Below, piece after piece: positions 1,378-58,259 of a stretch of 64,000 nt of DNA (position 1 is its first letter; each line of letters opens with the position of its first letter). This stretch comes from Deltaproteobacteria bacterium (GTDB taxonomy: Bacteria > UBA10199 > JACPAL01 > GCA-016699445), in NCBI GenBank assembly GCA_016699445.1, contig CP064976.1, forward strand, positions 2,222,619 to 2,286,618, in the 5' to 3' direction. Below the pieces are notes generated by a model, which saw nothing but the letters and a program-made list of their open reading frames with translations, was not told where the DNA came from and made no database searches. The translations under genes and the position numbers were made by a program.

Positions 1378-2126
1378 ATGAAAAACAAAATAAAAAGTCT
1401 TGGGCTCGTTTCAGCTACTTTGCTGAGCGTCGCCTTTTATCAACAACAGGCCCCGCTGGGTGCGGTGGGGGTGGTGGCGCTTCAACTATTGATACATCCG
1501 CTTCAGCGAGTGTAGAGCAAAGGCAACAAGTCGCTCTTCAAATTATATCTAACTTGGGTAGTAGTTCTTCAACAAACCCTGCGGGTTTATTATTAGGTTC
1601 TGATGCTCCTGCTTTAACTTTGGATACAACAGTTGCTGTACCTTGTGATTCAGGCTCAGCGACAATTGTTGTGAATCCAGGAACTCCAACAGCTATTACT
1701 TATGATCACTGCCGTTTTGGAGATTATACTATTGATGGTTTGGCCACGATCACAACGACGAGTTTACATCATACCACCATTACTTATACTAATGTGACTT
1801 ATTCGACCACCAGTTGTGGAGCTTATGGTTTGAATGGCACAATTGGCATTGATTCTTCAGCAGCTTCAACAACTACGTTTTTACCTGTGACTGTGACTTA
1901 TGGTTTAAGCACACAACGTGGTGGAAGTGTTGGAACCATTACAGGAACAGTGACACATAATACCGGTGATACTTTGTCAGGTAACATGAATGTGACCAAT
2001 CCTAATTTTACCTGCAACTACAGCAACACAGCTCTTACATGTCCTGCTTTGACTTCAGCCTGCAGCTTGTCTTCAGCTAGCTTGTGTAATGGAAATGATT
2101 TTCGAACGGATATTTGCTCTCTCTAA
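1378..2126 (+). CDS. Secreted Thr/Ser/Cys-rich protein, probable lipoprotein; frame change near 1445-1460
   Basis: AAGGAG RBS then ATG at 1378 encodes signal peptide MKNKIKSLGLVSATLLSVAF in frame 1; the Thr-rich body (ORF 1554..2126) is in frame 0 and open upstream (..PAGCGGGGGASTIDTS..); a 1-nt indel in the GCCCC run would join them. Confidence 0.45.
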
Positions 2127-2128
2127 AA

Positions 2129-3736
2129 ATGGAAAAACAATTTAAAGAACGCCTTCCCGAATTTACGACCCTCTCATCCAAAAAGATCGAGAGGGTCTAT
2201 AATTCTGACTCGATTGCTCATCTTAATCCTGAAAAGGATTTAGGCGAGCCTGGAGAGTATCCTTTTACGCGTGGCGCTTACCCGACCATGTATCGCGGTC
2301 GTCATTGGACCATGCGGCAGTTTGCAGGTTTTGGAACAGCAGCAGACACCAATGAACGCTTTCATTATCTTTTGAATCAAGGGCAGACAGGTCTTTCGAC
2401 AGCTTTTCATTTTCCCACATTGATGGGTGTAGATTCCGATAGTCCGCGTGCGCGCGGTGAGGTGGGTGTGTGTGGTGTAGCGATTGATACGCTGCATGAC
2501 ATGGAAGTCCTCTTTAAAGGAATCAATCTCGAAAATGTGAGTACGTCGATGACGATTAATACGCCTGCGCCGATCTTACTCGCGATGTATTTGGAAGTGG
2601 CGGCTAAACAAAATTTTCAGCAGAAAAAATTATCTGGAACGGTGCAGAATGACGTCTTGAAGGATTTTATTGCTCAAAAAACTTGGATCTATCCACCCGC
2701 TCCCGCCATGCGTTTGTGTACGGATCTTTTTGATTATTGCCAAACAGAAGTGCCTCGTTGGCATCCCGTTTCAATTTCGGGATATCACATTCGTGAAGCC
2801 GGTTCGACGGCAGCTCAAGAGTTGGCTTTTACCCTTCGAGACGGAATTGAGTATGTGGATTATTGTGTGAAGCGTGGAATGAAAGTTGACGAGTTTGGTC
2901 CCAAACTTTCTTTTTTCTTTAATGCTCAGAGTGATTTTTTTGAAGAGATTGCCAAGTACCGTGCGGCTCGTCGTATTTGGGCACGCACCATGAAAGAACG
3001 TTTCGGTGCGACTAATCCCGAAGCGATGCGTGTGAAGTTTCATACACAGACGGCTGGATGTAGTTTGACGGCTCAACAGCCCATGAACAATGTTGTGAGG
3101 ACGACACTGCAAGCTCTCTCAGGTGTGTTGGGTGGGACTCAGTCATTGCACACCAATTCGCTTGATGAAACTTTAGCGTTACCCACAGAAGCTTCTGTGC
3201 GCATTGCTTTGCGTACACAACAAATTATTGCCTACGAAAGTGGTGTGACCAATACCGTTGATCCTTTTGCAGGATCTTACTTTGTTGAAAAACTGACTGA
3301 CGACATTGAACGAGAAGCTTTGGCCTATTTTAAAAAAATCGACGACATGGGTGGGATGGTGCGTGCGATTGAACTTGGTTACCCTCAAAAAGAAATTATT
3401 GAAGCGGCTTACCGTTATCAAAAGCAGTTGGAGACTAAAGAAAAAATCATGGTGGGTGTACAAGACTTTGTGATTGAAAATGAGCCTCCGATTGACGTAC
3501 TCCGCATCGACCCTCAAGTGGAACAAAGACAGATTGAAAGTACACGGCAGGTAAAAGCCAAACGCAATAACGCTGCGGTGAAAGCGGCTTTAAGTGATTT
3601 GAAAAAAACAGCCGAAGGTTCGGCTAATCTCATCCCCAATATCCGCAATGCTGTTCGTGAGTATGCGACATTGGGAGAGATGATTGATACGATGAAGGAA
3701 GTGTTCGGGGCTTATAAGGATCCGGGGCATTATTAG
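2129..3736 (+). CDS. B12-dependent acyl-CoA mutase, catalytic (large) subunit, isobutyryl-CoA mutase-like
   Basis: ATG at 2129; methylmalonyl-CoA mutase family TIM-barrel domain without fused B12 domain; Phe in TMRQFAGF and Gln in DFIAQKTWIYPP at positions of MCM Tyr89/Arg207. Confidence 0.85.
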   Translation: MEKQFKERLPEFTTLSSKKIERVYNSDSIAHLNPEKDLGEPGEYPFTRGAYPTMYRGRHWTMRQFAGFGTAADTNERFHYLLNQGQTGLSTAFHFPTLMGVDSDSPRARGEVGVCGVAIDTLHDMEVLFKGINLENVSTSMTINTPAPILLAMYLEVAAKQNFQQKKLSGTVQNDVLKDFIAQKTWIYPPAPAMRLCTDLFDYCQTEVPRWHPVSISGYHIREAGSTAAQELAFTLRDGIEYVDYCVKRGMKVDEFGPKLSFFFNAQSDFFEEIAKYRAARRIWARTMKERFGATNPEAMRVKFHTQTAGCSLTAQQPMNNVVRTTLQALSGVLGGTQSLHTNSLDETLALPTEASVRIALRTQQIIAYESGVTNTVDPFAGSYFVEKLTDDIEREALAYFKKIDDMGGMVRAIELGYPQKEIIEAAYRYQKQLETKEKIMVGVQDFVIENEPPIDVLRIDPQVEQRQIESTRQVKAKRNNAAVKAALSDLKKTAEGSANLIPNIRNAVREYATLGEMIDTMKEVFGAYKDPGHY

Positions 3737-3853
3737 GGCCCCCACCACCCCTTCGGGGAGCCTCCCCCATAAATGAGGGAGGTCACAAAGGACCCTCCCT
3801 TTTTAGGGGAGGGAAATTGAGAGAATCGAAAGTAGTGATGGGTGGGGTAGGAG
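3737..3853. repeat. Structured intergenic repeat, family A copy 2
   Basis: GGCCCCCACCACCCCTTCGGGGAGCCTCCCCCATAAATGAGGGAGG...GGGTGGGGTAGGAG; ends 7 nt before ATG 3860. Confidence 0.8.
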
Positions 3854-3859
3854 AAAATT

Positions 3860-4264
3860 ATGGAAAGAAAACTTAGAATACTAGTCGCTAAACCCGGTCT
3901 TGATGGACATGACCGTGGAGCTAAAATTATCGCACGTGCTTTACGTGATGCTGGTTTTGAAGTGATTTATACAGGTCTACACCAAACCCCTGAAATGATC
4001 GCTGATGCCGCTTTGCAAGAAGACGTCGATTTAGTGTCTCTCTCTATTTTATCCGGAGCTCACAATCACTTAATGCCCGAAGTGATTCGTCTTTTGAAAG
4101 AAAAGGGAATGGGGGATGTGTCCATCATTGGTGGTGGTATCATTCCTCAAGAAGATATTGTGACGTTGAAACAACAAGGCGTGAAAGAAATTTTTACTCC
4201 AGGAACCGACACGCGTGATGTTGTGAAGTGGATCGAAACCAATATCCAACCACGAAGTTTATAA
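3860..4264 (+). CDS. Acyl-CoA mutase B12-binding (small) subunit
   Basis: 134 aa with cobalamin-binding DxHxxG motif ([15 protein letters not shown]) and Rossmann-like B12 domain. Confidence 0.85.
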
Positions 4265-4397
4265 TCCCCCACCACCCCTTCGGGGAGCCTCCCCCATAAA
4301 TGAGGGAGGCCAAAAAACAAAAAATCGCAAAATAAATGACCCTCCCTTTTTAGGGGAGGGAAGTTCCTATCATGAAATTATTGAGGGTGGGGTAGAG
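4265..4397. repeat. Structured repeat, family A copy 3 (with ~25-nt internal insertion); 3' arm overlaps the UbiA-like gene C-terminus
   Basis: Same 5' half as copies 1-2; the GGGTGGGGTAG arm read on the minus strand encodes the terminal ..LPHPQ* of ORF 4378..5238. Confidence 0.75.
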
Positions 4398-5238
4398 AAA
4401 TCCACACGCCTACAAAAAACAAGATCGAAATAATCCCGTTTACATTAAAGAAGGCCGCGTTGACCTTCGAAAGATCTTTGTCTGACACTAACGAATGTTC
4501 ATATAAAAACAATCCAGCAATTACGCTGAGAGTGATGAAATAAGTCCAGCCAAAGTGGTTTAAGATTCCGAAAGCTAAGAGCAGGAGTAAGGTGATCAGG
4601 TGAAAGAGGCGTGCGAGCAGTAGAGCTTTGCTAATACCCAGAGCCACCACCATTGAATGCAATCCTGATTGTTTATCAAAGTCATAATCTTGAGTAGCAT
4701 AAATCAAATCAAAACCCGCGACCCATAAAGTGACCGCAATACCTAAAAGGACAGGGATGAAAGCCACTTCTCCACGCATGGCGACCCAAGCGCCAATGGG
4801 AGACATGCCTAAAACACAGCCTAAGATAATATGAGAAAGAGATGTGAATCGTTTTGCCAACGAATAACCATAAGCGGCGCTCAGCGCGATGGGTGAGAGT
4901 TGAAATGCCAGAGTATTAATTTGTGTGCATAAAATGACAAAGAGGATTCCACAAAAAATAGAGGTGATCAGGACTGATTGTTTCGAGAGAATATTTTGAG
5001 GAATGTGACGCACCGCTGTTCGTGGATTTTTGGCATCGATGTCGGCATCAACCCAACGATTAAAAGCCATGGCTCCAGTGCGCAAAGCGACCATGGCTAA
5101 AACCATCAAAAATAAAATCCGAAAAGGCGGATGTCCTTGAGAGGCAATCATGAGAGAGGCGAGAGCAAAGGGAAGGGCGAAAATCGAATGCGAGAACTTC
5201 ACCATTTCGCCAAATTGTCTGATTTTCTTAATTTCCAT
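4378..5238 (-). CDS. UbiA-family aromatic prenyltransferase (MqnP/4-hydroxybenzoate polyprenyltransferase-like)
   Basis: 286 aa polytopic membrane protein with NRWVDADID (NxxxDxxxD) motif. Confidence 0.8.
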   Translation of the reverse strand: MEIKKIRQFGEMVKFSHSIFALPFALASLMIASQGHPPFRILFLMVLAMVALRTGAMAFNRWVDADIDAKNPRTAVRHIPQNILSKQSVLITSIFCGILFVILCTQINTLAFQLSPIALSAAYGYSLAKRFTSLSHIILGCVLGMSPIGAWVAMRGEVAFIPVLLGIAVTLWVAGFDLIYATQDYDFDKQSGLHSMVVALGISKALLLARLFHLITLLLLLAFGILNHFGWTYFITLSVIAGLFLYEHSLVSDKDLSKVNAAFFNVNGIISILFFVGVWISLPHPQ

Positions 5239-5782
5239 ACCGAGGCCTCAAGTCATTCCCAACCCCCAAATGATCCAAGACGCGAGCAATCACGGTATCT
5301 ACCGCTTCTTCAATCGTTTTGGGTTTTGAATAAAACGACGGAATCGCGGGAATGATCTCAGCTCCGGCCAAAGCCAAAAGGCGCATATTCTCAATATGAA
5401 CCAGGTTGAAAGGCGTCTCGCGAGGGACGAGAATCAACGTCTTCTTCTCTTTCAGAAACACATCGGCAGCCCGTGTCAGCAAGCTATCGGAATAGCCATG
5501 AGCGATCCGCCCCAAAGTGCCCATGCTGCACGGGATGATGACCATAGCGTCATAATGAGCTGTCACGGCGGAACCACTCGCAAAGGGTGCAGAAAAATCT
5601 TTTTGCCCAAAAAATGGAACGTCGAGAGATGTATAATCCGTGCTCATCTCATCAAGGCCGATTTGCAAAGCATTAGGACTCGCCGTGAGTTCGAGAGAAT
5701 GCCCAGCCTCTTTGAGGCAGTGAATAGTGCGCGTGGCATAAATAGCTCCGCTAGAGCCGCTGATTCCGAGGACAATTTTCAT
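5228..5782 (-). CDS. ubiX: Flavin prenyltransferase UbiX
   Basis: 184 aa, MKIVLGISGSSGAIYA N-terminus and full-length UbiX/Pad1 flavoprotein character; overlaps start of downstream UbiA-like gene. Confidence 0.85.
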   Translation of the reverse strand: MKIVLGISGSSGAIYATRTIHCLKEAGHSLELTASPNALQIGLDEMSTDYTSLDVPFFGQKDFSAPFASGSAVTAHYDAMVIIPCSMGTLGRIAHGYSDSLLTRAADVFLKEKKTLILVPRETPFNLVHIENMRLLALAGAEIIPAIPSFYSKPKTIEEAVDTVIARVLDHLGVGNDLRPRYGN

Positions 5783-5792
5783 AGGATGATTT

Positions 5793-7007
5793 TCATGCTT
5801 TCTCCTCAGGTGGTAAATGCCAAGGCTGTATGTTCATTCCAAGAAAGGGATAAGGATTTTCAAGAGGGACCATGAGGTAAAACTGGTTTGCTTTCTTCCC
5901 TAATTCTTTTTTGGCTTTCTCGAGTTGTTTCAACGTATCTTGAGTGATGGTGCGTGTACTTTTGATTTCATAAACGTCCCAGAGTGTTTGATTTTGGACC
6001 ATCAGATCAATTTCCAACGACGGCGTCTTGAGATAATAGTGTGGAGGCATTTCCCCTTGGCTCGTCCAATGTTTGATCAGATTAGTCACGACCAAGGTTT
6101 CAAAAAGAGGCCCAAACTGTGGAGAGCCTGCGATGAGTGAGGGATCCCGAAACCCCATTAAATAACAGGCAAGACCGACATCCATAAAATACATCTTGGG
6201 TGACTTCCGGATCCGTGACGAAATATTTTCATAAAAGGGTTCCACAAGATGGACTTGATAGGTTTGCACGAGAAGATTCAGCCAGCGCTGAGCGGTAGAA
6301 GGAGAGATGTTGGCGTCTCTGGCAAGATCACTGACGTTAAGGATTTGCCCAGTGCGGATAGCACACAATCTCACAAAACGTTCAAAGGAAAGAAGGTCAG
6401 CTACTTGTGCCAAAGAACGGATATCTCTCTCGAGATATGTATTCAAATAACTTCGATGCCAATCCGTAGGAAGGATATTTTGATCCCTCCATAATTCCGG
6501 AAAAAAACCTCGAAATAAAATTTGGGATAACGTGTCTTCCTGATGCCATTCTAAATCAATGGATGCGGAAATTTCTTTAACCGTAAGGGGATAAAGTGTG
6601 ATCAACCCAACACGTCCAGCCAAAGACTGAGTTACTTGTTCCATCATTAAAAAATTCTGGGAACCCGTCAGGATATACTGACCCTTTTCATCACGTTTTG
6701 CGTCGATACGACTTTGGAGATAGCTGGTCAGGTCAGGAACATTTTGGAATTCGTCAAAAATTACCGGAGGAGGGTAGCGATCCAAAAAGCTTTTGGGATC
6801 TTGCAGTACTTGCGCTCTCAGATCCAGGTCTTCAAGAAGGACATAATGATGAGTCTTGCAGTGCTCTTTGATAAAAGAGGTCTTTCCGACTTGTCGAGCC
6901 CCTGTCAGGATAATAGCGGGAAAAGACTTGAGAAAACGATCAAAAACACCCTCAAATTGCCTCGTAAACATTTGAAAAATAATAATATATGCAAATTGAT
7001 TATTCAA
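5793..7007 (-). CDS. AAA+ ATPase with DUF4143-type C-terminal domain
   Basis: Walker A GARQVGKTS near N-terminus; ~400 aa architecture typical of the ATPase/DUF4143 family; true start may be an internal Met. Confidence 0.7.
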   Translation of the reverse strand: MNNQFAYIIIFQMFTRQFEGVFDRFLKSFPAIILTGARQVGKTSFIKEHCKTHHYVLLEDLDLRAQVLQDPKSFLDRYPPPVIFDEFQNVPDLTSYLQSRIDAKRDEKGQYILTGSQNFLMMEQVTQSLAGRVGLITLYPLTVKEISASIDLEWHQEDTLSQILFRGFFPELWRDQNILPTDWHRSYLNTYLERDIRSLAQVADLLSFERFVRLCAIRTGQILNVSDLARDANISPSTAQRWLNLLVQTYQVHLVEPFYENISSRIRKSPKMYFMDVGLACYLMGFRDPSLIAGSPQFGPLFETLVVTNLIKHWTSQGEMPPHYYLKTPSLEIDLMVQNQTLWDVYEIKSTRTITQDTLKQLEKAKKELGKKANQFYLMVPLENPYPFLGMNIQPWHLPPEEKA

Positions 7008-7024
7008 TAATTAATTTGCATGAA

Positions 7025-7714
7025 TTATTTATCCGCCACGATTAAATGCGAAATACCACCCGTTTGTGCGGTAATTTTGATGTTCTTAAAGCCTGTTTGT
7101 TCTAATAATTTTCGGTACTCTTCCGTCGTGTAAAATTTCCGCACGGAATCGCGCAAATGTTCATAAGCCGACTTATTCTTAGACACTAAGGATCCTAATA
7201 CTGGAATGACAACTTCCGCGTAGGTGATGTTGAAAAGCTTCGGGAGAAGCTCCGTGGGCTTGAAGAATTCTAAGACCACGAGACGTCCGCCGGGTTTTAG
7301 CCATTCGTAAATATTCTGGAGTGCGAGGGGATTGTCTCCCACATTGCGCATTCCATAAGCCACCATCGCACCATCATAAGAAGAGCGGGGGATATCCAAG
7401 GCCAGTATATCCCCAATCTGAATTTGAATCTGCTTGCGTTCTTCTGGCGTCAAAAGGGCTTCACCTTTTTTGAGCATGTTTTCAGAAAAATCCACAGCGG
7501 TGATCTGAGTCATGGGATTGGTTTCCAAAAGTGTTTTGGAGAGAGCCAAAGTCCCGGCACAGAGATCCAGGATTTTCTGAAATTTTTTCGAATCAGAAAA
7601 TTCTTTCATCCCTTGCCGCCGCCACCGACGGTCGACTTGAAAAGAAAGCAGCGAATTCAACAAATCATATTGAGGCGCGATGGAGTCAAAAAGTTTCTGG
7701 ATGTGTTCGGACAT
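7025..7714 (-). CDS. ubiE: Demethylmenaquinone/ubiquinone C-methyltransferase UbiE/MenG
   Basis: 229 aa class I SAM methyltransferase with UbiE-type motifs (LDLCAGTL, VAYGMRNV). Confidence 0.85.
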   Translation of the reverse strand: MSEHIQKLFDSIAPQYDLLNSLLSFQVDRRWRRQGMKEFSDSKKFQKILDLCAGTLALSKTLLETNPMTQITAVDFSENMLKKGEALLTPEERKQIQIQIGDILALDIPRSSYDGAMVAYGMRNVGDNPLALQNIYEWLKPGGRLVVLEFFKPTELLPKLFNITYAEVVIPVLGSLVSKNKSAYEHLRDSVRKFYTTEEYRKLLEQTGFKNIKITAQTGGISHLIVADK

Positions 7715-7746
7715 GGGTCCGCCCTAACGAGGACGCCCTCACTTGT

Positions 7747-9810
7747 CTATCTTCCATTAGGTCTTGGAAATGGTCCGGCATCTGCCGCAAAACCTATACG
7801 TGTCGTTTCAGCTCTGAGTAATGCTACTCTCATTTGTCTGGCACGAAAAGCGTCTGGATGCTTGGCTTCTGCTAAATCATCAGGTTTGAAATGTTTTACG
7901 AGTGCGGCAAAAGCTGGACGGACTCCCAATGGTGAATAGCCAAACATATTATGAGGAGATCGAAATCCTGTAAGATCACGAGGTATATCGGGTGAAGGCA
8001 CAGCACCCACATGGAAATTATTAGCCATCATGATGCGTTCAGCATCAGGAATCTTATCATCTCTGACATGCATGCCAGCGATATTACGCCGTGGAATGTA
8101 TTCATTGGGCACGAAAAGCGCTCCCTTCCGACGAAGAGGCGCATAAGGTGAAGGGAAAGGAAATGAAGAGATTCGTGTGCCTGAATCAAATAAGGCATTA
8201 CTTCTTCCTCGTTTGATATTAGTTTTCATTATTTCATAAATCGCTGAAGGATCTTTGCGACTTAAAAATCCTCCTGTTGTATTCAATAAATGCCCTCTCA
8301 TCACAGGAACAAAATTAAATATTTTTTCGGCGATGATAGAGTCTGGTTCAAGACCGAAAAGATATAAAGAACCAATGATGCCACAATAATCAAAAGCTCC
8401 TGTGTGATCCCAGGCTGAAATATTCCCTTGGGAAGGTTGTCGTTGTTGATCATGTCCTGAAAAAAGAAGATCAGCTCCTAGGATATTTTCGATTCCTTCG
8501 GGAACTCGATGCCTAAACATAAAATCTTTATCTGATTCACTTCCAATGATTCGGATTCCTGAGTAAGCATTGACAAGCATGGGTAGCGCCCATCGATTCG
8601 CTATCTGATGGTCATACTCTTGCTGAGTCAGTTTGCCATTTCTCAAATCGCTAATAAGATGTCGAGGGTGAGATGTGAGCTCATATAATAACTCCAGTGA
8701 CTGCATTCCCGTAGGCCCTTGATCGATGCGGTACGCTTGAGTTCTGGAAAGAAAAGTTGTGATGGGAATTTGAATATCCCATTTTTTAAGTATTTTTTGA
8801 GCGGCTTCATGTAAGTTCCAAAGTGCATTAAAACTTTTTTCTTCTCGTTTTTTTCGTTCATTTTCACGAGCGTTTTTATCTCCACCAATCATGGTTTGAT
8901 TATAGGCTATGTAGTTTTCAGTGAGAGATTTGTAAGCATTTCGAGCTACTGTAAACTCATCACATTCTTGAGACGTAGCTCTGTCTTTAAATTTGAGAAA
9001 AACATTGTCGTAAACAGTCAGCTGCCATTCGAGCTCAATATTTTCTATTTTGAGATGAAGCGGAAGTGCTTCTTGCCAAAGCTTATACTCTCTTTCAAAT
9101 GAGTTTTCTTGAGTACTAGATGGTGAAGCAAAAAATAATTCACGATAATCTTCATTAGCTTCCAACGCTTGAGCGTATAAGCCCGAGAGTTTGTCTTGTA
9201 TCTCTTGTGGTAAAACTGCCATGACGCGATCGTAAGCTGCTTCACTCCATTCAAGATCCGCTGCATGAAAACGTTCATAAGACGCCCGTCTTTCAGCTGT
9301 TTCAATGTGTGAAGGAATCGCTTCATAAACAACTTTTTCTTCAACAAGTTTTCTAACGGCTGCAGGATCGGTGACCAGATGGGCAGGAGGGGGTGGGGAT
9401 TTAGGAAATTCGCGAATCAAGCGAGCTCCTAAATACCCTAAAACTGTAGAACTTTTTCTTCCCAAGGTATCAATCGCTTCAACTCCTGGAGCTTCACTCA
9501 CAGAAACATTCAAAGCTTCTGCAATATTTTTATTAAAAATAGGAGCCAAAGAAGGGTGATAACTATGAGGTTGAAGCGTCGTAAAAAAGTCTCGTGCTTC
9601 AGGGATGGTTTGAGGAGGCGTTGATGACAATCCCACTAGATTTTGATCCAAAGATTTTAGCTCTTGATGTAAGTACTGAGCGATAGCCATTATTGGCGCT
9701 TCGCTCAGTCTATCTGTTTTCTGTTGGGCTAAAAAATCACGAAAATTAAGTGTGGATAAAAAATGGCTCGTGGCAAAAGTCAGGGCTTGGTTTGTTGAAG
9801 GGGAAATCAT
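7747..9810 (-). CDS. Hypothetical protein, 687 aa, no recognised domain; polar uncharged N-terminus
   Basis: Long ORF, 28-nt spacing to upstream gene, N-terminus MISPSTNQALTFATS. Confidence 0.6.
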   Translation of the reverse strand: MISPSTNQALTFATSHFLSTLNFRDFLAQQKTDRLSEAPIMAIAQYLHQELKSLDQNLVGLSSTPPQTIPEARDFFTTLQPHSYHPSLAPIFNKNIAEALNVSVSEAPGVEAIDTLGRKSSTVLGYLGARLIREFPKSPPPPAHLVTDPAAVRKLVEEKVVYEAIPSHIETAERRASYERFHAADLEWSEAAYDRVMAVLPQEIQDKLSGLYAQALEANEDYRELFFASPSSTQENSFEREYKLWQEALPLHLKIENIELEWQLTVYDNVFLKFKDRATSQECDEFTVARNAYKSLTENYIAYNQTMIGGDKNARENERKKREEKSFNALWNLHEAAQKILKKWDIQIPITTFLSRTQAYRIDQGPTGMQSLELLYELTSHPRHLISDLRNGKLTQQEYDHQIANRWALPMLVNAYSGIRIIGSESDKDFMFRHRVPEGIENILGADLLFSGHDQQRQPSQGNISAWDHTGAFDYCGIIGSLYLFGLEPDSIIAEKIFNFVPVMRGHLLNTTGGFLSRKDPSAIYEIMKTNIKRGRSNALFDSGTRISSFPFPSPYAPLRRKGALFVPNEYIPRRNIAGMHVRDDKIPDAERIMMANNFHVGAVPSPDIPRDLTGFRSPHNMFGYSPLGVRPAFAALVKHFKPDDLAEAKHPDAFRARQMRVALLRAETTRIGFAADAGPFPRPNGR

Positions 9811-9838
9811 AAAATCCTCATTTTTATAGTTTTAGTTT

Positions 9839-47719: not shown

Positions 47720-48643
47720 ATGACTAAAGACTATTATAAAATTCTTGAAGTAGAGCGTAGTGCTTCTCAGGACGATATTAAAAAAAGTTTTCGCAAACTC
47801 GCCAAAAAATACCATCCTGACGTCAACAAAGGGAATAAAAAGGCTGAAGAAAAGTTTAAGGAAGTTACCGAAGCTCATGAAGTTTTGGGAGATGCCGATA
47901 AGCGGAAAAAATATGATCAGTTTGGTTCGGCTGATTTTTCTGGTTTTGGAGGGGGAGGCGGGACCGGACCAGGTTATGCCCATCGAGCTTATTCATGGAA
48001 TAATCAGCAAGGTGCTCAGAATGGGGCTGATTTTAATATTGGGGATATTTTTGGAGATTTGTTTGGTGGAGCCGGTGGAGGCTTTAGTACAGGCCGCACG
48101 TCTCGATCACGAAAGGGAACTCCATTTTCAGACTACATGCAAGAAGCTCAAGAAGATGTAGAGACGTCCATTGAAATTGCTTTTGAAGAATCCATCAAGG
48201 GTGGCACGCGTCGTTTGACTTTGCAGCGTGGGGGTCGTGAAGAGAAGATTGATGTGAAAATTCCGGCGGGTATTCGTGATGGTGGTAAAATCAGAATTCC
48301 TGGAAAAGGAAATGGTGGAGATCTTTACATTAAAGTACGTGTGGCCCCACATCAGCTTTTTACCCGAGAGGACGACGATTTATTTGAAGAAGTGCCGATC
48401 ACATTTACTCAAGCGATTTTAGGCGACACGATGAAAGTCCCGACACTTGATGGAGCGATTAATCTAAAAATCCCTCCGCATACCTCTTCTGGAAAGAAGT
48501 TTCGCATTCCCGAAAAAGGAGCTCCTCATTTAGGGCAAGCAGGTCGTGGAGATCTGTTTGTGATTGCTCACGTCTACATCCCTGAAAAATTAGATGAAGA
48601 AGATATTGAAGCTATTCGAAAAATTCATAAGAAAATTTCGTAA
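47720..48643 (+). CDS. J-domain co-chaperone without zinc finger (CbpA-like)
   Basis: J-domain [36 protein letters not shown]-rich linker, DnaJ C-terminal domains; no CxxCxG repeats. Confidence 0.8.
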
Positions 48644-48644
48644 A

Positions 48645-50269: not shown

Positions 50270-50337
50270 AGAATAGTCTCCTGAGATTTAAGAGTTTGCT
50301 GAATAAGAAGCCCGGATTACTGCGTCAAGTGACAACG

Positions 50338-52269
50338 TCATTGAGGCTGATTAATTGATAACAGTGGTGACATCCCGATTAAAGCTCTCGCTGTTGTAAA
50401 AATAACTTCAATAACAGCTTCTGCTGAAGGTGGAGTGCTATTTTTCGACAAGTTGGAAAAAAAACTATAACCAGCTCTCAGTGAAAAATGAGAGTTATGT
50501 GTTCTCAAAAGGACGTCCAATAATAGTGGATCTAGAAAGAGCGTTTCAGGGAATTGCCCTGGGTGCTCAATATACCTAATGTTTTGTTTTCCAAGCCAAT
50601 CATATACTTTGTCGAGGCGATCTCTCTGTATGGGGCCTATGCTTTGGATCAAGGTTTGAAGCTCTTTTTTAAGAACCTCCAACCTTTCGGAATCCCCTCT
50701 TAAAAGTGATTGAACAAATTGGTCTCTTAAATTTTTGAGTTTAATGATGATATTCAGAAGCTCTTGGTCTTCTTTAGTAAGTTTTGGATGCGGCGTTACT
50801 TCATCAGGAAGTGGATCTTGTGGAGTTTGATAAAGTGGAGATAGTCGATTCCAGTTTGATTCATGGAGCTGTGCTTTAGCCTGTTGTTTCCAAGCTAGGA
50901 CAGCAGGTAGGTTCGCCCAAGGTGACCATGAAAGATGCGCTCCAAGTAAAGTGAGCAACGGAGAACCTTTCTTCAAGAAGGGTCTTTTGCTTAAAAGTGC
51001 AATCAAGAGTGCCGGGTGTTGATCTTTTTCAATGATTTTTGAAATTATAGAAGCCGCGTAAGCTGCTTGATCTGTAAAAGAGGGTGGGGGTAAGCCCAAT
51101 GCTTCTGCTACTTTTTCCCATTGGGAGGTTTCTTGAGATAACTCCATCATGGACAGTATTAATTCTATGCAAATCAGACTTCTTTTTTCTTCTAAAACTT
51201 CTTCAAACCTATGCAGAAGAATAGAATGATAAATGTTCGTAATCCGTTCCCGTAGTCGTTTGATTTTATTACCTATGAAATGTTCAGAGCCATCCCTGCT
51301 TTTTTTTGTAAGTTGGGCCACTCTCAAAGAGTCCTTCTGATAATGACTGATAACTTCGCGGGTCCAAATAGCATAATCATTAGCTGTGGTAGATGCAGGT
51401 CTTGTAGCAGGATCTATAGTTATTAAGGGATCTTGATATCCATAAACATAAGGCCTTTCACTCCAGTTTGAATAGGAAGGTTGGAGATGCGTAAAGGGTA
51501 GAGGCGGGTTTGTAGCCTTCACTTCATCCGCATGAGGATAAGGATCGATAAAGCCAAAAAGAAGATAGAGAAATTTCGAATTGCTGTAGAGCTTATCTTT
51601 TAAAATATTAGGAATAGCTGTCCAAGCTTCTTGTAGGCGTCGACATAAATAATCAATAAGTGGGAAATTTTTTTCGGAGGCTTGCATGAGAATCTCTAGT
51701 ATCTCTAAAAGAGTTTCTAAACTTTTGTAAGAACAAGTATCCGGAGAAAGCAGATTTTCGATCCAAGTAATTGTTGCTGTAAAAGGGAGACTTTCTGATC
51801 TTGGAGGTTTCGATTCTTCATATTCTCCACACCATTGATTAGAGAATGTTCGCATTTCTTCTAAAACTTCTGGCAGAGAAAACCCTCGGGTGTACCAATC
51901 TCTCAACAAGGCATAAGGTTCCATTTCAATGACTTCAGGATTTCCAGTGAGCTGAGTCGGCCACAAAGGATCTTGTTGAGCCAAAAAGTTTATTCCTGAT
52001 GTACGAATTTGCTCAGCAGTGAGACTATTTGAGACCCAAATCTCAAATGAATCCGGTAATCTTTCATCTGAAGGTTTTAGACGGGGTGCTAATAACGCAC
52101 CAGCTCCTCCTAAAACAACTACAGCCACCAAACTAAGAAGAGGTGGTACTTGAGAAGTCGATAAAACGTCCTCCCCCTGTGAAGCTGGCTGTAAGTGAGC
52201 ATCAGCTGCAGGTGCAGAAGGAAAAACAGTTGCAGTCGGAGAACCTGTGATAACAAAAGGCGGTGGCAT
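50338..52269 (-). CDS. Hypothetical protein, 643 aa, single N-proximal hydrophobic helix; polar uncharged N-terminus
   Basis: MPPPFVITGSPTATVFPSAPA.. then LLSLVAVVVLGGAGALLA helix; no recognised domain. Confidence 0.55.
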   Translation of the reverse strand: MPPPFVITGSPTATVFPSAPAADAHLQPASQGEDVLSTSQVPPLLSLVAVVVLGGAGALLAPRLKPSDERLPDSFEIWVSNSLTAEQIRTSGINFLAQQDPLWPTQLTGNPEVIEMEPYALLRDWYTRGFSLPEVLEEMRTFSNQWCGEYEESKPPRSESLPFTATITWIENLLSPDTCSYKSLETLLEILEILMQASEKNFPLIDYLCRRLQEAWTAIPNILKDKLYSNSKFLYLLFGFIDPYPHADEVKATNPPLPFTHLQPSYSNWSERPYVYGYQDPLITIDPATRPASTTANDYAIWTREVISHYQKDSLRVAQLTKKSRDGSEHFIGNKIKRLRERITNIYHSILLHRFEEVLEEKRSLICIELILSMMELSQETSQWEKVAEALGLPPPSFTDQAAYAASIISKIIEKDQHPALLIALLSKRPFLKKGSPLLTLLGAHLSWSPWANLPAVLAWKQQAKAQLHESNWNRLSPLYQTPQDPLPDEVTPHPKLTKEDQELLNIIIKLKNLRDQFVQSLLRGDSERLEVLKKELQTLIQSIGPIQRDRLDKVYDWLGKQNIRYIEHPGQFPETLFLDPLLLDVLLRTHNSHFSLRAGYSFFSNLSKNSTPPSAEAVIEVIFTTARALIGMSPLLSINQPQ

Positions 52270-52418
52270 ATAGAGACTTATTCGGAAGATGAAAAAGTAA
52301 GTTGCGATTTTTCATCAGTCTTTATTTTGCTTTCATAAAAATCCGCAACTTTTGATGCTTGTTTGCCGATGACTAAGAATCATTAAAAAGATTTATTTGC
52401 CGTAACGCGTCAATTTCT

Positions 52419-53408
52419 ATGAGTTTTTGTCATGACTCTCGGGTTGACATAATCAGAGGGCGCAGGGTAACACCGCGCAAATTTTTTGTGAAAATAAACA
52501 AACTCAAAATCGTTTCTCTCTTATTGGTCCAGATTTTTCTGGCCTCATCTTGTAGTCTCTCCAAAATCGCATCGGACATGACTTCTGATATTTTTAAGGG
52601 TGGTGTTCCATCCTTTGAAATGGAAGGAGATGTCGAAGTGGCTGAAAATGCCGGCTTGGCGATGATCAAGACTTTGGAAATTTTTAATTACCAAAATCCT
52701 TCCAACAAAACCTATCTGGCTCTTCTCTCTCGTTCTTATGCTACGTATGCTTTTGGATTTTTGGAAAACCGCATGTTGCAGTATCAATATAAAGATCAGG
52801 AAAAATATAATCTCTATTTTAACCGAGCCAAACGTTTTTACACTATTGGTAAAAAATACGGGATGGATCTCTTGCAACGTTCTGACAAAAAGTTGGTCAA
52901 AGCTTTGGGGCAGGGTGTGGATGCCACGCGGGCTCGTATGAAGTCTTATGATCATCAAGAAGTGGAGCCGGTGTTTTGGACAGCTTTTAACTGGGGAAGT
53001 CTCATTAATCTTTCTAAAGATGATATCTCCGTTGTGGCTGATTTGGCTCTGGTGGAAGTGATGATGGCGCGCATTTTGGAAGTGCACCCCACATTTTATT
53101 TTGCCGGCCCACATCTTTTTTATGGTGTTTATTATGCGAGCCGTCCCGCAATGCTTGGGGGAAGTCCTGAAAAAGCTAAAAACCATTTTGAAGAAGCCGC
53201 TCGCTTAAACGGTGATAGGTCGTTGATTGTGTATGCTTTGGAAGCTCAGTTTTTAGCGGTACAGACAATGGATAAGACTTTGTTTGACGAATTGCTGGAA
53301 AAAATTAATGCAGGATCGATCGATGCTTTGCCAGAACAGAGACTCGCAAACTCACTGGCGAAAGATCGAGCGAAGTATTTGAAGGAAAATTCGAATCAGT
53401 ATTTTTAA
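52419..53408 (+). CDS. TRAP-transporter-associated TPR-like lipoprotein (TatT family); start probably internal
   Basis: Internal signal/lipobox IVSLLLVQIFLASSC; TPR-like helical protein immediately upstream of a DctP-type binding protein. Confidence 0.6.
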   Translation: MSFCHDSRVDIIRGRRVTPRKFFVKINKLKIVSLLLVQIFLASSCSLSKIASDMTSDIFKGGVPSFEMEGDVEVAENAGLAMIKTLEIFNYQNPSNKTYLALLSRSYATYAFGFLENRMLQYQYKDQEKYNLYFNRAKRFYTIGKKYGMDLLQRSDKKLVKALGQGVDATRARMKSYDHQEVEPVFWTAFNWGSLINLSKDDISVVADLALVEVMMARILEVHPTFYFAGPHLFYGVYYASRPAMLGGSPEKAKNHFEEAARLNGDRSLIVYALEAQFLAVQTMDKTLFDELLEKINAGSIDALPEQRLANSLAKDRAKYLKENSNQYF

Positions 53409-53426
53409 ATACAAAAGGGAGGTTGT

Positions 53427-54434
53427 ATGAATAAAGGTTTTTCTAAGATCGTCGCGGGTCTTGTGATGAGTCTCGCTGTTCTAGCAGGTTCAGCCGTTCA
53501 AGCTCAGCAGGCTTCTAATATCAAAGAATTGAAGTTTGCCACTTTAGCTCCCAGCGGATCGTCATGGGATAAGCTTTTTGTCGCGTGGAAAGATGAAGTG
53601 ATTCAACGCACGAATGGTCAAGTGGTTCCTAAGATTTATGCTGGTGGTGTTCAAGGTGATGAGAAAGCTGTTGTTCAAAAAATCCGCAGTGGTCAATTGG
53701 TCGGTGGTGGTTTGACGGGTTTTGGTTTAGGAATGATTGCTCCTTCCGTTAGAGCTTTAGAGCTCCCTTTTTTATTTAAAGATGGTGCTGAAGTCGATAC
53801 CGCTATTCAAAAAGTAGATACTTCCATGCGCGCGGCTTTTAATAATGGCAATCCTCAAGTGGAATTGTTGGGTTGGGCTGAAGCTGGTTTTGTTTACATC
53901 ATGTCCAATAAGCCAATTGCTAAGCTTGATGACATGAAGGGTGTGAAGATGTGGATGTGGGAAGGGGATCCTGTAGCCGAAGCCCTGTACTCTTCACTCA
54001 ATGTGACTCCTGTTCAGCTTTCTATCGCTGACGTTTTAACGTCACTTCAAACCAGCATGATTGAAGCTGTGTATGCGCCTCCCATGGGTGCTGTGGCTCT
54101 TCAATGGGCGTCTAAAGTCAAATATGTGACAGATCTTCCTTTGGCTAATTCCATTGGTGGTTTGGTGATGAGTAAAGCTGAATTTTCTAAGCTGACTCCG
54201 GAACAACAGAAAATCTTAAAAGAAGTTTCGCAAAAATATTGTCGTCAAATTGTGGAACAAACACGAAAAGATAATGCAGCAGCTTTTGACTCCCTTGTGA
54301 AGTTGGGTGTTCAAAAGGTTTCTGTAGCTGATGCAGATAAACAAGCTTTGGTTAATTTGACTGTAGGTGTGGGTGATAAGCTTGTGGGTAAACTTTATGA
54401 TCAAGCCACTCTATCGAGTGTGCGCGGGAAATAA
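53427..54434 (+). CDS. TRAP transporter substrate-binding protein (DctP family)
   Basis: Signal peptide then DctP-family periplasmic binding fold, 335 aa. Confidence 0.85.
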   Translation: MNKGFSKIVAGLVMSLAVLAGSAVQAQQASNIKELKFATLAPSGSSWDKLFVAWKDEVIQRTNGQVVPKIYAGGVQGDEKAVVQKIRSGQLVGGGLTGFGLGMIAPSVRALELPFLFKDGAEVDTAIQKVDTSMRAAFNNGNPQVELLGWAEAGFVYIMSNKPIAKLDDMKGVKMWMWEGDPVAEALYSSLNVTPVQLSIADVLTSLQTSMIEAVYAPPMGAVALQWASKVKYVTDLPLANSIGGLVMSKAEFSKLTPEQQKILKEVSQKYCRQIVEQTRKDNAAAFDSLVKLGVQKVSVADADKQALVNLTVGVGDKLVGKLYDQATLSSVRGK

Positions 54435-54436
54435 TC

Positions 54437-54934
54437 ATGAAGCAACAATTGAATAACTTGAATGAACTGATTGGCAAGATCGAGACGTTTTTTGTCTCGA
54501 TCTTGCTGTCTGTGATGATCGTTTTAGCATTTCTCCAAGTAGTGATGCGCAATGTTTTTAATGAAGGCATTCCTTGGGCTGATAGTGTGGTGCGTTTGAT
54601 GGTGCTGTGGGTGGGATTGTTTGGTGGTTGTTTGGCAACCAAACTGGAACAAAATATCACAATAGAAGTGATGACCAAATACATGCCAGAGCGTGGTAAA
54701 CATTTGGTAGGTGTTTTGGTGAAGAGCTTTGCTGTGATTGTTTGTTTGTATCTTTTTAAAGCCTCTTTAACCTTTATTCAGAATGAAAGTAGTTCTGGAA
54801 GTGAGTTTTTACATCTCTTCCCTGATTGGTGGACTGTCACTATTATCCCTATCGCTTTTATTCTGATCCCTTTTCACTTGTCCTTTAGTATTGTGAAAGA
54901 TGCTCAGTATTTTCTGAAAGGAAAGAAATCGTGA
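54437..54934 (+). CDS. TRAP transporter small permease (DctQ)
   Basis: 165 aa, four hydrophobic helices, positioned between DctP and DctM. Confidence 0.75.
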   Translation: MKQQLNNLNELIGKIETFFVSILLSVMIVLAFLQVVMRNVFNEGIPWADSVVRLMVLWVGLFGGCLATKLEQNITIEVMTKYMPERGKHLVGVLVKSFAVIVCLYLFKASLTFIQNESSSGSEFLHLFPDWWTVTIIPIAFILIPFHLSFSIVKDAQYFLKGKKS

Positions 54935-56203
54935 CAACTCTCTTGGTGGTTTTGATTGTTTTAGCGGCAGCTTTTGGGGCTCCGCTTTTTTCCATTTTTG
55001 GGGCAGGTTCTTTAGTGGGTTTTATCAATGCAGACATCAATCCGTCGGCGATTATTATTCAAATGACACAATTGGTTTCAGCGCCAGCGCTAGTGGCTAT
55101 TCCTCTTTTTACTTTTGCCGGCTACATGATGGCAGAAAGTAAAATGCCAGAGCGTTTGGTGAATGTTTCTCAAACTCTCTTAGGTTGGATGCCGGGTGGT
55201 TTGGCATTTGTCACTCTCTTTGCTTGCTCTTTTTTTACAGCGTTTACTGGTGCTTCAGGTGTGACAATTATTGCTTTGGGAGGACTTCTCTATCCTATCC
55301 TTGTTAAACGAGGTTATCCTGAACACTTTTCATTAGGAATGATGACCTGTTGTGGAAGTTTGGGGCTGCTGTTTCCACCGAGCTTGCCTATCATTCTTTA
55401 TGGGATGGTGGCAGGAGTGGATGTTGATAAGCTCTTTATGGCAGGTCTTGTTCCAGGGATTTTGTTGATTGTCATGATTGCAGCTTACTCACTTTATATT
55501 GGGCGTGGTCATGCCATGAGAGTGCCTTTCAAGTTGAATGCTACACTCAAAGCTTTGAAAGCTGCAGGTTGGGAAATTCCTTTGCCATTTTTAGTTTTGA
55601 TTGGCGTCTATGGTGGATATACGACCGCTTCAGAAGCGGCAGCAGTCTGTGCAGCCTATGTTTTTATTGTCGAAGTTTTCATTTATAAAGATCTAAGTCT
55701 GACTAAAGATGTTCCCCGTGTGATGAAGGATAGTATGGTTTTGGTGGGGGGGATTTTGGTGATTGTGGCTGTGGCCTTGGGTTTTACCAATTATGTGATC
55801 GATCAAGAAGTGCCGATGAAGCTTTTTGCTCTTACGAAGAAGTATATCTCAAGTCCCTACATGTTCATGACGATTTTAGATCTCTTCCTTTTAATTGTGG
55901 GTTGTTTGATCGATATTTTTTTCAGCTATTTTGGTTATTGTTTCAATTATTGTTCCGGTGGCGATGGGGTATCATATTGACCCTGTTCATTTAGGAATTG
56001 TCTTTTTGGCCAATATGGAAATCGGTTATTTGACGCCTCCTTTTGGTCTAAACCTTTTCTTGGCTGGGTATCGTTTTAAAAAGCCTGTGGCGAAAGTGTT
56101 TGTGGATTCTTTGCCTTTTATTATTATTTTGCTGACAGGGCTGGCCTTACTCACTTATTTCCCCATTATCAGTACCTATTTAGTAAATAAGATTTATCAT
56201 TAA
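54931..56203 (+). CDS. TRAP transporter large permease (DctM), frame-disrupted at a T7 run (~55920)
   Basis: ORFs 54931..55980 and 55931..56203 overlap; T8 instead of T7 gives continuous ..LIDIFFSAILVIVSIIVPVAMGYHIDPVHLGIVF..GYLTPPFGLNLF. Confidence 0.8.
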
Positions 56204-56228
56204 CCTCAAAAAATCAGGAGCGAAGATT

Positions 56229-57404
56229 ATGACAGAAACAGTCATCGTGAGTGCTACACGTACAGCCATTGGTTCTTTTCAAGGAGCTTTGGCCGAAGTG
56301 GGAGCGACAAAGTTGGGAAGTATTGCCATTGCCGAAGCTTTAAAAAGAGCTGGTTTAAGTGGTGAAGATGTCAATGAAGTGATTATGGGCAATGTATTGA
56401 CCTCAGGAATTGGTCAAGCTCCAGCCCGCCAAGCAACTCTCTATGCAGGATTGCCTCAGGGAACTCCCGCGCTGACGATTGGAAAAGTTTGCGGATCTGG
56501 ATTGAAGGCTGTGATGTTGGCCGATCAAATCATTCGTTCAGGAGATTCTGAAGTGATCATCGCGGGTGGTATGGAGAATATGTCTCAATCTCCGTATTTG
56601 CTGCCTAAAGCGCGTAATGGCTATCGCATGGGCCACGGCGAGATTATTGATAGTATGATCAAGGATGGTTTGTGGGACGTGTACAATAATTTCCACATGG
56701 GTACGGCGACGGAGATGTGTGCGAAGAAGTATGAAATCAGCCGTGAAGATCAGGATAAGTTTGCCGCTTTAAGTTATACACGCGCTCAAAAATCAGTCAC
56801 CGATGGTGTTTTCCAAAAAGAAATTGTTCCTGTTTCAATTGAATCCAAAAAGGGCACGGTGATTTTTGATAAGGACGAAGAGCCTTTCAAGGGTAATATT
56901 GAAAAGCTCGCCACCTTGCGTCCTGCTTTTGATAAAGCGGGTACTGTGACGGCTGGAAATGCTTCGGGTATCAATGATGGTGCAGCAGCTTTTGTTTTGA
57001 TGAGTGCCGAAGCCGCGAAGAAGAAGGGGTTGAAACCTTTGGCTCGTATTATCGGACAAGCTCAAGCGTCTTTGGATCCAGCTTGGTTCAGTATGGGTCC
57101 TGCTGAAGCTATTAAGAAAAATTTGGCGAAGTTGAATTTAAAAACTTCTGATATCGATTTGTGGGAAATCAATGAAGCTTTTGCAGCTGTCGCGATTGCT
57201 AATAACAAAGTCTTGGGTCTTTCAGAAGATCGCGTGAATATCCGCGGTGGTGCTGTGGCTTTGGGTCATCCAATCGGAGCCTCAGGCGCTCGCGTATTAG
57301 TGACTTTGGTTCATGCGCTTTTAGAAACTAACGCCAAGAGAGGTTTGGCTTCTCTGTGTATTGGTGGTGGTGAAGGTGTATCGTTGGTGATCGAAAGATT
57401 ATAG
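56229..57404 (+). CDS. Acetyl-CoA C-acetyltransferase (thiolase II)
   Basis: 391 aa; active-site Cys region [10 protein letters not shown]-terminal [13 protein letters not shown]. Confidence 0.9.
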
Positions 57405-57409
57405 AAATT

Positions 57410-57491
57410 GTAGGGGCGCCATTCATGGCGCCCCTTTATTTACTGCGATAAATTAGGGCGTGATGAACACGCCCCTACCGTGGGGGTAGGG
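57410..57491. repeat. Three tandem GC-rich hairpins related to the 28-bp palindrome
   Basis: GTAGGGGCGCCATTCATGGCGCCCCT; AGGGCGTG-ATGAAC-ACGCCC; CCCTACC-GTGG-GGGTAGGG; directly 3' of thiolase stop. Confidence 0.6.
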
Positions 57492-58259
57492 TATGAAAGA
57501 TGCTCTTTTAGCTATTATTGTTGGGCTTTATTGGGAGTCATGGTTTGCTTTGGTGCGTTGCAGTTGAGAAGCGACAAAGACAAAACCACTTCTCTTATTC
57601 CTGTTTCAAAAAACTCTTCAGAGACAACAAAAACAATTTCAGCTTCTGCTAGTAGTTTTGTGATGGCAAAGCCAGACGTAGCTATTTTAAGTATGGGTAT
57701 TGAAAGTCGAGGCCCAAAGTTGGAAGCTCTACTAGCTGAAGTAAACCAAAAAAACTCACTTCTGATGCAAAAAATAAAAGAGAGTGGTGTTGCAGAAAGA
57801 GATATTCAATCTAATCTATCGACATATCCTCAGTACAGTAATGGTGGTAAAGGTATTCCTCCTAAAATCATCGGTTATGAAGTGAGAAATAAGATTGTTC
57901 TTAAAATAAGAAGTCTTTCAAAAGTAGGTGAGACTCTTGATCTTGTCATTTCTGGGGGTATTAATTCTTTAGATAATATTCAGTGGGTGATTGAAGATGA
58001 TGAAAAATATAAATCTCAAGCACGGTCAGCTGCTGTACGTTTAGTTATGAATAAAATTAAAGGAATGTCGGATGCCGCTGATGTTAAAATTGGAGATATC
58101 GTTTCCCTTCATGAAGATTTTAGCTCTCAAGAAGATCCAAGTGACAACATCACTCTTAATAAAATGTCTGCATCATCTGGATTAGCGCAGGGTGCTGTTT
58201 CTGAAAGTGGAATGATTAAAGTGTCTGCGCAAGTTTCAGTGAATGTCGAGATTCAGTAG
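57480..58259 (+). CDS. SIMPL-domain (DUF541) periplasmic protein; N-terminus possibly frame-disrupted
   Basis: Body matches SIMPL pattern; ATG 57493 in frame +1 encodes signal-like MKDALLAIIVGL.. that would join the main frame with a 1-nt indel. Confidence 0.6.
   Translation: MGVGYERCSFSYYCWALLGVMVCFGALQLRSDKDKTTSLIPVSKNSSETTKTISASASSFVMAKPDVAILSMGIESRGPKLEALLAEVNQKNSLLMQKIKESGVAERDIQSNLSTYPQYSNGGKGIPPKIIGYEVRNKIVLKIRSLSKVGETLDLVISGGINSLDNIQWVIEDDEKYKSQARSAAVRLVMNKIKGMSDAADVKIGDIVSLHEDFSSQEDPSDNITLNKMSASSGLAQGAVSESGMIKVSAQVSVNVEIQ

Follow-up and report, generated by a model that had tools for sequence, protein, structure and literature searches.

The frame breaks in the window (the whole 64,000-nucleotide stretch of contig CP064976.1 that was analysed) are very probably errors in its consensus and not mutations of the organism; they almost certainly represent artefact rather than gene decay, because a nearly identical strain has an unbroken copy of each affected gene and the lesions look like homopolymer errors of the consensus. 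The indels are present in the window, are specific to it and lie mostly in runs of identical bases, and every gene concerned is whole in the nearest strain. The original prediction had reported at least ten frame disruptions, mostly at short mononucleotide runs, and had favoured systematic consensus error over decay or phase variation; this preference is supported by the intact relative, the 1-nt run-length lesions, unrelaxed selection and a flat indel density.

As reference, Logan contigs of SRR12404947 were used, which were assembled independently, are 97–99% identical to the window, span 58.3 kb of it and come from a different strain; their accuracy as a short-read product was assumed. Breaks were seen in three-frame translations and their positions were fixed by alignment to the intact orthologous genes of SRR12404947. 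All ten predicted disruptions were recovered by translation and alignment, within 5–35 nt of the predicted positions; the list was real but incomplete, and 8 more sites brought the total to 18 frame-breaking sites in 13 genes (13 of ~57 genes compared, 23%). The relative carried 0 such lesions, and all 13 genes were whole in its contigs (361 aa for dnaJ, 541 for fumA, 423 for dctM and 698 for the large lipoprotein). Runs of 3–7 nt held 15 of the 18 sites, and the window was shorter than the relative at 13 of the 18; the sites that were not length changes of runs of at least 3 nt were 36922 (G to GG), 37527 (GG to G) and 42622 (inserted C). Each split pair of reading frames aligned to one continuous gene in the relative, which rules out chance juxtaposition of ORFs.

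Positions below are those of the window, with strand as + or −. The lipoprotein before the methylmalonyl-CoA mutase (249 aa, gene 1378–2126, +) was broken at 1435–1438 (T4, relative T5; predicted at ~1450), and the PemK/MazF toxin (111 aa, gene 21854–22190, +) at 21978–21982, where the window had C5 and the relative C4, as expected for the predicted C5 break at ~21985. The break in the radical-SAM-like gene (429 aa, ~24927–26215, −; predicted at ~25310) lay at 25305–25308 (T4, relative T5); once repaired, this gene formed one ORF, with a sub-threshold match to PF04055. In dnaJ (gene 30026–31110, +) codon 21 of 361 was affected at 30086–30090 (A5, relative A6; predicted at ~30091), and in dctM, a TRAP transporter gene (54931–56203, +), ~codon 329 of 423 at 55916–55922 (T7, relative T6; predicted at ~55920). 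The SIMPL-domain gene (57493–58259, +), for which an N-terminal break at ~57520 had been called probable, was indeed broken at codon 12 of 255 (57527–57529; T3, relative T4). The repeat protein (610 aa, gene 35840–37671, −), predicted to be broken at ~36905, had the first of three breaks at 36922–36923 (GG, relative G). The break in fumA (class I fumarate hydratase, gene 48645–50269, −) was present but misplaced: it had been put at ~49415, and the true run is at 49440–49446, ~25 nt away, near codon 275 of 541 (T7, A7 on the coding strand, relative 8).

Two breaks were located in the large lipoprotein (698 aa, gene 41456–43513, +). The first, predicted as a G5 run at ~42148, was found at 42145–42149, where G5 stands at a 31-nt gap; the relative is longer by 31 nt, which was interpreted as an in-frame difference of 30 nt with 1 further nt, and G6 at 42145 would restore ...TGGDIEKA... 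in the 698-aa protein. The second had been expected at ~42590 and exists, ~30 nt away at 42622, as an extra C after T4 that is not a run extension.

Of the eight further sites, one lay in an alpha/beta-hydrolase (269 aa, gene 20631–21438, +), broken at 20893–20899 (A6+G, relative A8+GG, net −2). The MFS transporter (gene 22220–23407, −) carried a pair at 22863 (+1, T7 vs T6) and 22898 (−1, G4 vs G5), spanning 22863–22901; the two changes compensate each other, leaving an 11-aa stretch out of frame in an ORF that is still open. The C-terminus of a Phd/YefM antitoxin (90 aa, gene 32817–33088, −) was altered by a break at 32835–32839 (T5, relative T6). The repeat protein on the minus strand had its second break at 37527 (G, relative GG) and its third at 37604–37608, right after the start codon (T5, relative T6). 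A second Phd antitoxin (96 aa, gene ~62318–62605, −) was affected at 62384 (−1, T6 vs T7) and 62436 (−2, T5 vs T7), spanning 62384–62440, and the shifted stretch between the two sites contains a stop codon.

Outside genes, about 7 intergenic 1-nt indels were found, an A5 vs A6 difference at 1364–1368 and others at 11647, 11841, 13634, 40139, 56210 and 57482; 5 of the 7 were in runs of at least 3 nt. Run-length discordance in runs of at least 5 nt affected 10 of 356 coding and 3 of 40 non-coding runs (Fisher p = 0.13, with low power from ~3 kb of non-coding sequence), so that genes showed no clear depletion of frame-breaking changes; like the flat indel density given below, this accords with an artefact but falls short of deciding for it. 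When runs of at least 5 nt were counted by base, those of G/C were affected more often (about 4/52) than those of A/T (13/536), on small numbers. In-gene indels longer than 2 nt all kept the frame (−3 at 2869, −3 at 35217, +9 at 35271 and the 30/31 nt at 42145). Two classes of indel are distinguished, those of more than 2 nt, which are in frame and are what selection leaves, and those of 1–2 nt, which break the frame.

Taken as real, the breaks would amount to a very recent burst of slippage that inactivated ~1/4 of the genes, for example in a mismatch-repair-deficient hypermutator or in a lineage entering genome decay under extreme drift, and this is improbable. In its favour, the indels are specific to the window and fall in runs, which are prone to replication slippage as well, and window-specific real mutations are conceivable given that the comparison strain is not the identical strain; yet selection in the broken genes is not relaxed and is the same purifying selection as in the intact ones. 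pN/pS was 0.113 in ten broken genes vs 0.095 in 38 intact genes, and it stayed low downstream of the breaks (0.20; 44.5 synonymous and 29.5 non-synonymous changes). Indel density was flat with respect to local divergence (Spearman rho 0.25, p = 0.30): blocks less than 1% divergent had 8 indels per 15 kb with only 92 substitutions, and more divergent blocks had 16 indels per 40 kb with 1404 substitutions. The lesion spectrum, 18 frameshift sites to 1 nonsense change, is atypical of natural decay, although the nonsense change (CAG to TAG at 24095 in a PIN toxin) looks real and some true inactivation may thus occur. The window has no IS elements, large deletions or eroded genes, and its genes are otherwise full length.

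A burst would also have to account for more than 1000 frameshifts when extrapolated to a several-Mb genome that otherwise looks free-living, with many toxin–antitoxin pairs and complete pathways, and for a sister strain that has no lesion of this kind. The same low probability attaches to the variant in which mismatch-repair loss or a host-restricted or strongly bottlenecked life acted before other signs of decay appeared; transcriptional or ribosomal slippage may then have given a partial rescue. The two close pairs of indels that restore frame (22863/22898 and 62436/62384) would be in keeping with real, compensated frameshifts; this interpretation was rejected, as run-length-dependent rates would give ~0.7–1.4 such pairs by chance, the observed number is not significant against that expectation, and the 62436/62384 pair encloses a stop codon.

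That essential-looking genes are involved had been taken as an argument for consensus error. The genes are broken as described, but the argument is weaker than claimed because the window contains a CbpA-like paralog of dnaJ at 47720–48643 and because fumA and dctM are often dispensable; this weakness is offset by the other lines of evidence.

Functional frame changes, either in phase-variable contingency loci or by programmed ribosomal or transcriptional slippage that yields full-length protein, were considered very unlikely. The breaks do occur at mononucleotide runs, and the two surface lipoproteins (1378–2126 and 41456–43513) and the repeat protein belong to classes that phase-vary in other bacteria. 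Efficient slippage usually requires runs of roughly 8 or more nt, however, and the tracts here are only 1–7 nt. The shifts go in both directions (+1 and −1), involve runs of all four bases as well as sites outside runs, and share no slippery motif; the genes hit are for the most part housekeeping or cytoplasmic ones (dnaJ, fumA, dctM, toxins, antitoxins); and the breaks are spread along the genes from codon 12 to codon 329 with no 5' preference. Nor is the shift conserved: the genes are in frame in SRR12404947, DnaJ is uninterrupted in L007 and L008, two relatives at 60% identity, and FumA is uninterrupted across the break position in 80/80 other genomes. Tract length, gene class, shifts in both directions and the lack of conservation were the grounds for rejecting phase variation and programmed frameshifting.

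Contingency loci of Neisseria, Haemophilus, Campylobacter and Helicobacter share with the window the change of frame at mononucleotide tracts, but their tracts are ~8 nt or more, whereas those of the window are 1–7 nt, mostly in cytoplasmic housekeeping genes and with no 5' or promoter bias. Buchnera and Blochmannia have A/T-run breaks in conserved genes that are rescued by transcriptional slippage at poly(A) tracts; those tracts are long (at least ~9 A) and lie in reduced genomes of extreme AT content, and the window differs in its short tracts, its GC content of 42% and the additional involvement of C and G runs and of sites outside runs. Genomes in early reduction (Mycobacterium leprae, Sodalis glossinidius, Shigella and Yersinia pestis) likewise have many interrupted genes, including housekeeping genes. 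In them the lesions are mixed (nonsense changes, IS elements, deletions and multiple hits per gene) and selection is relaxed, in contrast to the window, with almost only single-base indels, normal pN/pS and an intact sister strain.

The comparison rests mostly on the assembly of one sample, and the converse was therefore weighed, that the window is correct and the contigs of SRR12404947 are wrong or 'over-repaired'. No point was found in favour of this reading, which is scarcely credible: random assembly errors break frames and would not mend 18 of them, the contig ORFs are full length with complete Pfam architectures (DnaJ with 4 domains, Fumerase plus Fumerase_C, DctM, SIMPL and PemK), and the contig genes agree with the continuous genes of distant relatives. 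In a second sample, ERR12160659, the PemK ORF was open for at least 97 codons, and that of the window stops at codon 49. A scan of JGI metagenomes recovered as relatives only L007 and L008, and a scan of GTDB with FumA gave a best identity of 83%, to Desulfuromonadales/'Deltaproteobacteria' MAGs with no synteny. Exact-product look-ups of the thiolase, DctQ and HemC gave no hit, nor did a scan of GTDB species representatives with the lineage-specific 643-aa protein, and no paper turned up in a literature search for the two SRA run accessions. Look-ups of the truncated products, FumA at 278 aa and DctM at 349 aa, found no other assembly with the same frameshift, which is weak evidence as the collection does not hold the window's strain.

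Homopolymer indel errors are known to fragment genes in unpolished assemblies from long reads (ONT R9 type, PacBio CLR) or flow-based platforms (454, Ion Torrent) (PMC12007338, PMC6325685, PMC8574707), and in uncorrected long-read assemblies 23.3% pseudogenes have been reported, 89% of them frameshift-only, with A/T-homopolymer deletions dominant (PMC12007338). The window resembles unpolished assemblies in its 1-nt indels at short homopolymers, with deletions in excess of insertions, most events in A/T runs and a minority off-run, and in that frameshifts alone split ~23% of its genes, which are otherwise full length and conserved; it departs from the A/T-dominant pattern in that, per run, its G/C runs of at least 5 nt are affected more often. 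Under the consensus-error reading, the assembly would have miscounted short runs of identical bases, mostly with the loss of one base, and ~1 small indel per 2.3 kb would artificially split roughly 1/4 of the window's genes. The errors would date from sequencing or from the calling of the consensus, the likeliest source being noisy long reads, or a flow-based chemistry, that had no short-read polishing, and the living strain would have intact genes.

The value of the result is in quality control, not biology. If the same rate holds genome-wide, ~1 small indel per 2.3 kb corresponds to roughly Q33–34, ~1/4 of the predicted proteins would be truncated or split, and pseudogene counts, completeness, pan-genome and metabolic inferences would be wrong until polishing. 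Other findings in the window that concern short ORFs, 'split' genes or odd termini are to be read with this error rate in mind. Were the indels real, they would show how genome decay begins in unusually pure form, and the evidence is against this.

Scans of the window for tRNA and Rfam families, prompted by the ORF-poor stretch at 62.7–64 kb, returned only a tRNA-Gly at 46780–46851. An RNA gene as the cause of the ORF-poor appearance was rejected; the stretch is a single ORF for an LRR protein, which the ORF tool leaves out of its list because it continues beyond the end of the window.

Three-frame translation was performed across each of the ten single-nucleotide frame breaks listed in the original prediction, and at all ten sites, those in dnaJ, fumA and dctM included, the expected protein resumed in another frame; in dctM, ...LLIVGCLIDIF is followed by SAILVIVSIIVPVAMGY... 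in the shifted frame. Split sites appear in the ORF table as adjoining or overlapping ORF pairs. The window has a GC content of 42%, contains no N and shows a normal homopolymer census. By translation and by alignment gaps against a relative, 10/10 breaks were present, at positions 5–35 nt from those first proposed; the list was incomplete, eight further frame-breaking sites having been missed.

Comparison contigs were found by exact-product look-ups using short conserved proteins of the window. Four contigs of 7–24 kb were obtained, all from Logan assemblies of SRR12404947 (loci L001–L006 and L089), and aligned collinearly to window positions 1–14266, 18831–25912, 26218–44513 and 44496–63968, covering 58.3 kb with 1597 substitutions. 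Nucleotide identity was 97–99% for most of the length, and the contigs represent another strain from the same species-level population. Positions 14267–18830 lie outside the comparison sequence, and the ORFs there look contiguous. At 18507–18830 (opposite L003 1–30) the comparison contig ends and diverges, and the L003 orthologue of the 281-aa protein at 18507–19352 was called at only 181 aa; the probable cause is structural variation or the contig end itself, and no frameshift. In the relative, the flagged genes were single ORFs with full Pfam architecture: DnaJ (361 aa; DnaJ, DnaJ_CXXCXGXG and DnaJ_C), FumA (541 aa; Fumerase and Fumerase_C), DctM (423 aa), a large lipoprotein (698 aa), a PemK toxin (111 aa), a repeat protein (610 aa), the lipoprotein before the mutase (249 aa) and a SIMPL protein (255 aa). 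The exception was the radical-SAM-like gene, which is truncated by a contig end yet open across the break site; with one T added, the window copy became an ORF of 429 aa that matches Radical_SAM weakly. No gene of the relative was broken in the compared region.

For the census, every alignment gap was read and exact runs of identical bases were then checked (T4/T5 denotes window/relative run length). Window-specific frame-breaking sites numbered 18, spread over 13 genes: 1435 (T4/T5, lipoprotein before the mutase), 20893–20899 (net −2 at an A run, alpha/beta-hydrolase), 21978 (C5/C4, PemK toxin), 22863 (T7/T6) and 22898 (G4/G5) in an MFS transporter, 25305 (T4/T5, radical-SAM-like gene), 30086 (A5/A6, dnaJ), 32835 (T5/T6, 90-aa Phd antitoxin), 36922 (GG/G), 37527 (G/GG) and 37604 (T5/T6) in the repeat protein, 42145 (G5, a 31-nt gap of 30 + 1) and 42622 (extra C) in the large lipoprotein, 49440 (T7 against 8, fumA), 55916 (T7/T6, dctM), 57527 (T3/T4, SIMPL), and 62384 (T6/T7) and 62436 (T5/T7) in a 96-aa Phd antitoxin. 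The window lacked bases at 13 of these sites and had extra ones at five. Seven intergenic 1-nt differences were of like kind (1364, 11647, 11841, 13634, 40139, 56210 and 57482), and the small-indel rate in the window was approximately 1 per 2.3 kb. The 22863/22898 pair puts 11 residues out of frame and keeps the MFS ORF open, so that it is undetectable without a reference. That all 18 frames were mended by errors in the comparison contigs is next to inconceivable, as such errors could not restore them.

Artefact and real mutation were compared by five read-free tests, covering indel classes, selection, coding versus non-coding sequence, divergence and lesion spectrum. Intragenic indels longer than 2 nt were all in frame (−3 at 2869, −3 at 35217 and +9 at 35271), as were 30 of the 31 nt of the gap at 42145, and paired ±1 gaps from diverged codons also preserved frame; such differences are typical of natural variation filtered by selection. 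Isolated intragenic changes of 1–2 nt were all frame-breaking. Nei–Gojobori counts against the relative gave a pN/pS of 0.113 in ten broken genes versus 0.095 in 38 intact genes. If a break were real and of long standing, the sequence past it would not be translated; in the parts beyond a gene's first break pN/pS was 0.20 (44.5 synonymous and 29.5 non-synonymous changes). Values for single genes were 0.04 (dnaJ), 0.05 (dctM) and 0.125 (fumA). Judged by these counts, real breaks would have to be far younger than the ~1–3% strain divergence.

True indel polymorphism is usually strongly depleted in genes. Runs of ≥5 differed in length at 10/356 within genes and 3/40 between genes (Fisher p = 0.13), a test of low power, the available non-coding DNA amounting to only 3 kb. 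In 3-kb blocks less than 1% divergent, 8 indels were counted per 15 kb (92 substitutions), and in more divergent blocks 16 per 40 kb (1404 substitutions); the block 36001–39000 held three indels despite 0.2% substitutions. Indel density was flat against divergence across blocks (Spearman rho 0.25, p = 0.30), so the process behind the indels does not follow evolutionary distance. The lesion spectrum of the compared region comprised the 18 frameshift sites and one nonsense change, with no IS elements, large deletions or shortened genes among the lesions of compared genes. A real recent burst of frameshifts, by a hypermutator or at the onset of decay, is improbable: it needs more than 1000 frameshifts genome-wide with almost nothing else altered; the genome otherwise resembles that of a free-living organism, and the sister strain has zero such lesions. 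Two close frame-restoring pairs resembled real compensation, but ~0.7–1.4 close pairs are expected from run-length-dependent rates, and the antitoxin pair encloses a stop codon.

The frame changes are no conserved recoding signals, since FumA was unbroken over the break position in 80/80 genomes from other species, and two 60%-identical relatives likewise had a continuous DnaJ. The PemK ORF of a second public sample, ERR12160659, is open for at least 97 codons, and that of the window stops at codon 49. Neither the Logan/NCBI/ENA gene index nor the JGI metagenomes nor the GTDB representatives yielded the genome of the window itself, and a product look-up found no other record of FumA or DctM in their truncated forms. 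Programmed slippage or phase variation is very unlikely, given frame changes without conservation, tracts of only 1–7 nt, mixed shift direction and the wrong gene class.

In noisy long-read assemblies and with flow-based chemistries, the residual errors are known to be dominated by run-length miscounts. Miscounting of run length at consensus calling would produce window-specific indels of this kind, which would then have been made by the sequencer or assembler. With lesions confined to the window, normal selection and whole genes in the relative, the frame breaks are very probably systematic consensus error and no biological feature, as originally proposed. In one uncorrected long-read assembly, 23.3% of genes were annotated as pseudogenes, 89% of those frameshift-only; deletions after A/T runs were the commonest error, with a minority off runs, and correction cut the pseudogene rate to 5.6% (PMC12007338). 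The window resembles that assembly in its fraction of split genes (13 of ~57 compared, 23%), deletion bias and spectrum. The value of the result is as a warning: this genome should be polished before findings are drawn from it at the ORF level.

Seven toxin–antitoxin-like gene pairs in 64 kb are unusually dense: RHH–PemK, three small-protein–PIN, ParE–Phd, HigB–HigA and Phd–PIN (21622–22190, 23574–24226, 24259–24868, 32515–33088, 33206–33932, 47029–47671 and 61855–62605). They hold 4/13 of the artefactually broken genes. The nonsense substitution, CAG to TAG at 24095 relative to the other strain (codon 85/127 of the PIN/VapC-like gene 23843–24226), is the sole premature stop by substitution within 58 kb; it may mark the genuine inactivation of a toxin from a toxin–antitoxin pair, or else be a substitution error.

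Two genes were hypervariable between strains beside nearly identical neighbours, with 87–92% nucleotide identity in their own alignment blocks: 9842–11647, encoding a 601-aa protein of unassigned function (pS 0.45, pN 0.11), and 42620–43513, the C-terminal 300 aa of the 698-aa lipoprotein (72% identical, several in-frame indels). The pattern is suggestive of mosaic recombination, or of diversifying selection acting on surface proteins. Synonymous divergence was strongly mosaic across the window, from 0 to 0.2–0.27; DUF481, HigBA and the DnaJ paralog at 47720–48643 were 100% identical, and the mutase, dctM and a CofH-like radical SAM gene were the most diverged. The mosaic points to homologous recombination being frequent in this population. 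The best FumA match in a GTDB scan was 83% identical, from Desulfuromonadales-like MAGs and without synteny. Five large minus-strand genes form a run at 7747–17198 (687, 601, 565, 591 and 557 aa), most of them lacking Pfam domains; two of the products, of 565 and 557 aa, are paralogous acyltransferase-domain proteins on either side of a HAD-domain protein. A 236-aa ORF at 29190–29900 (+) was rejected as a shadow ORF antisense within dnaK. The apparent ORF desert at ~62700–64000 (+) is one LRR-protein ORF of at least 423 aa (LRR_6 and LRR_4), missing from the ORF table because it runs past the window end.
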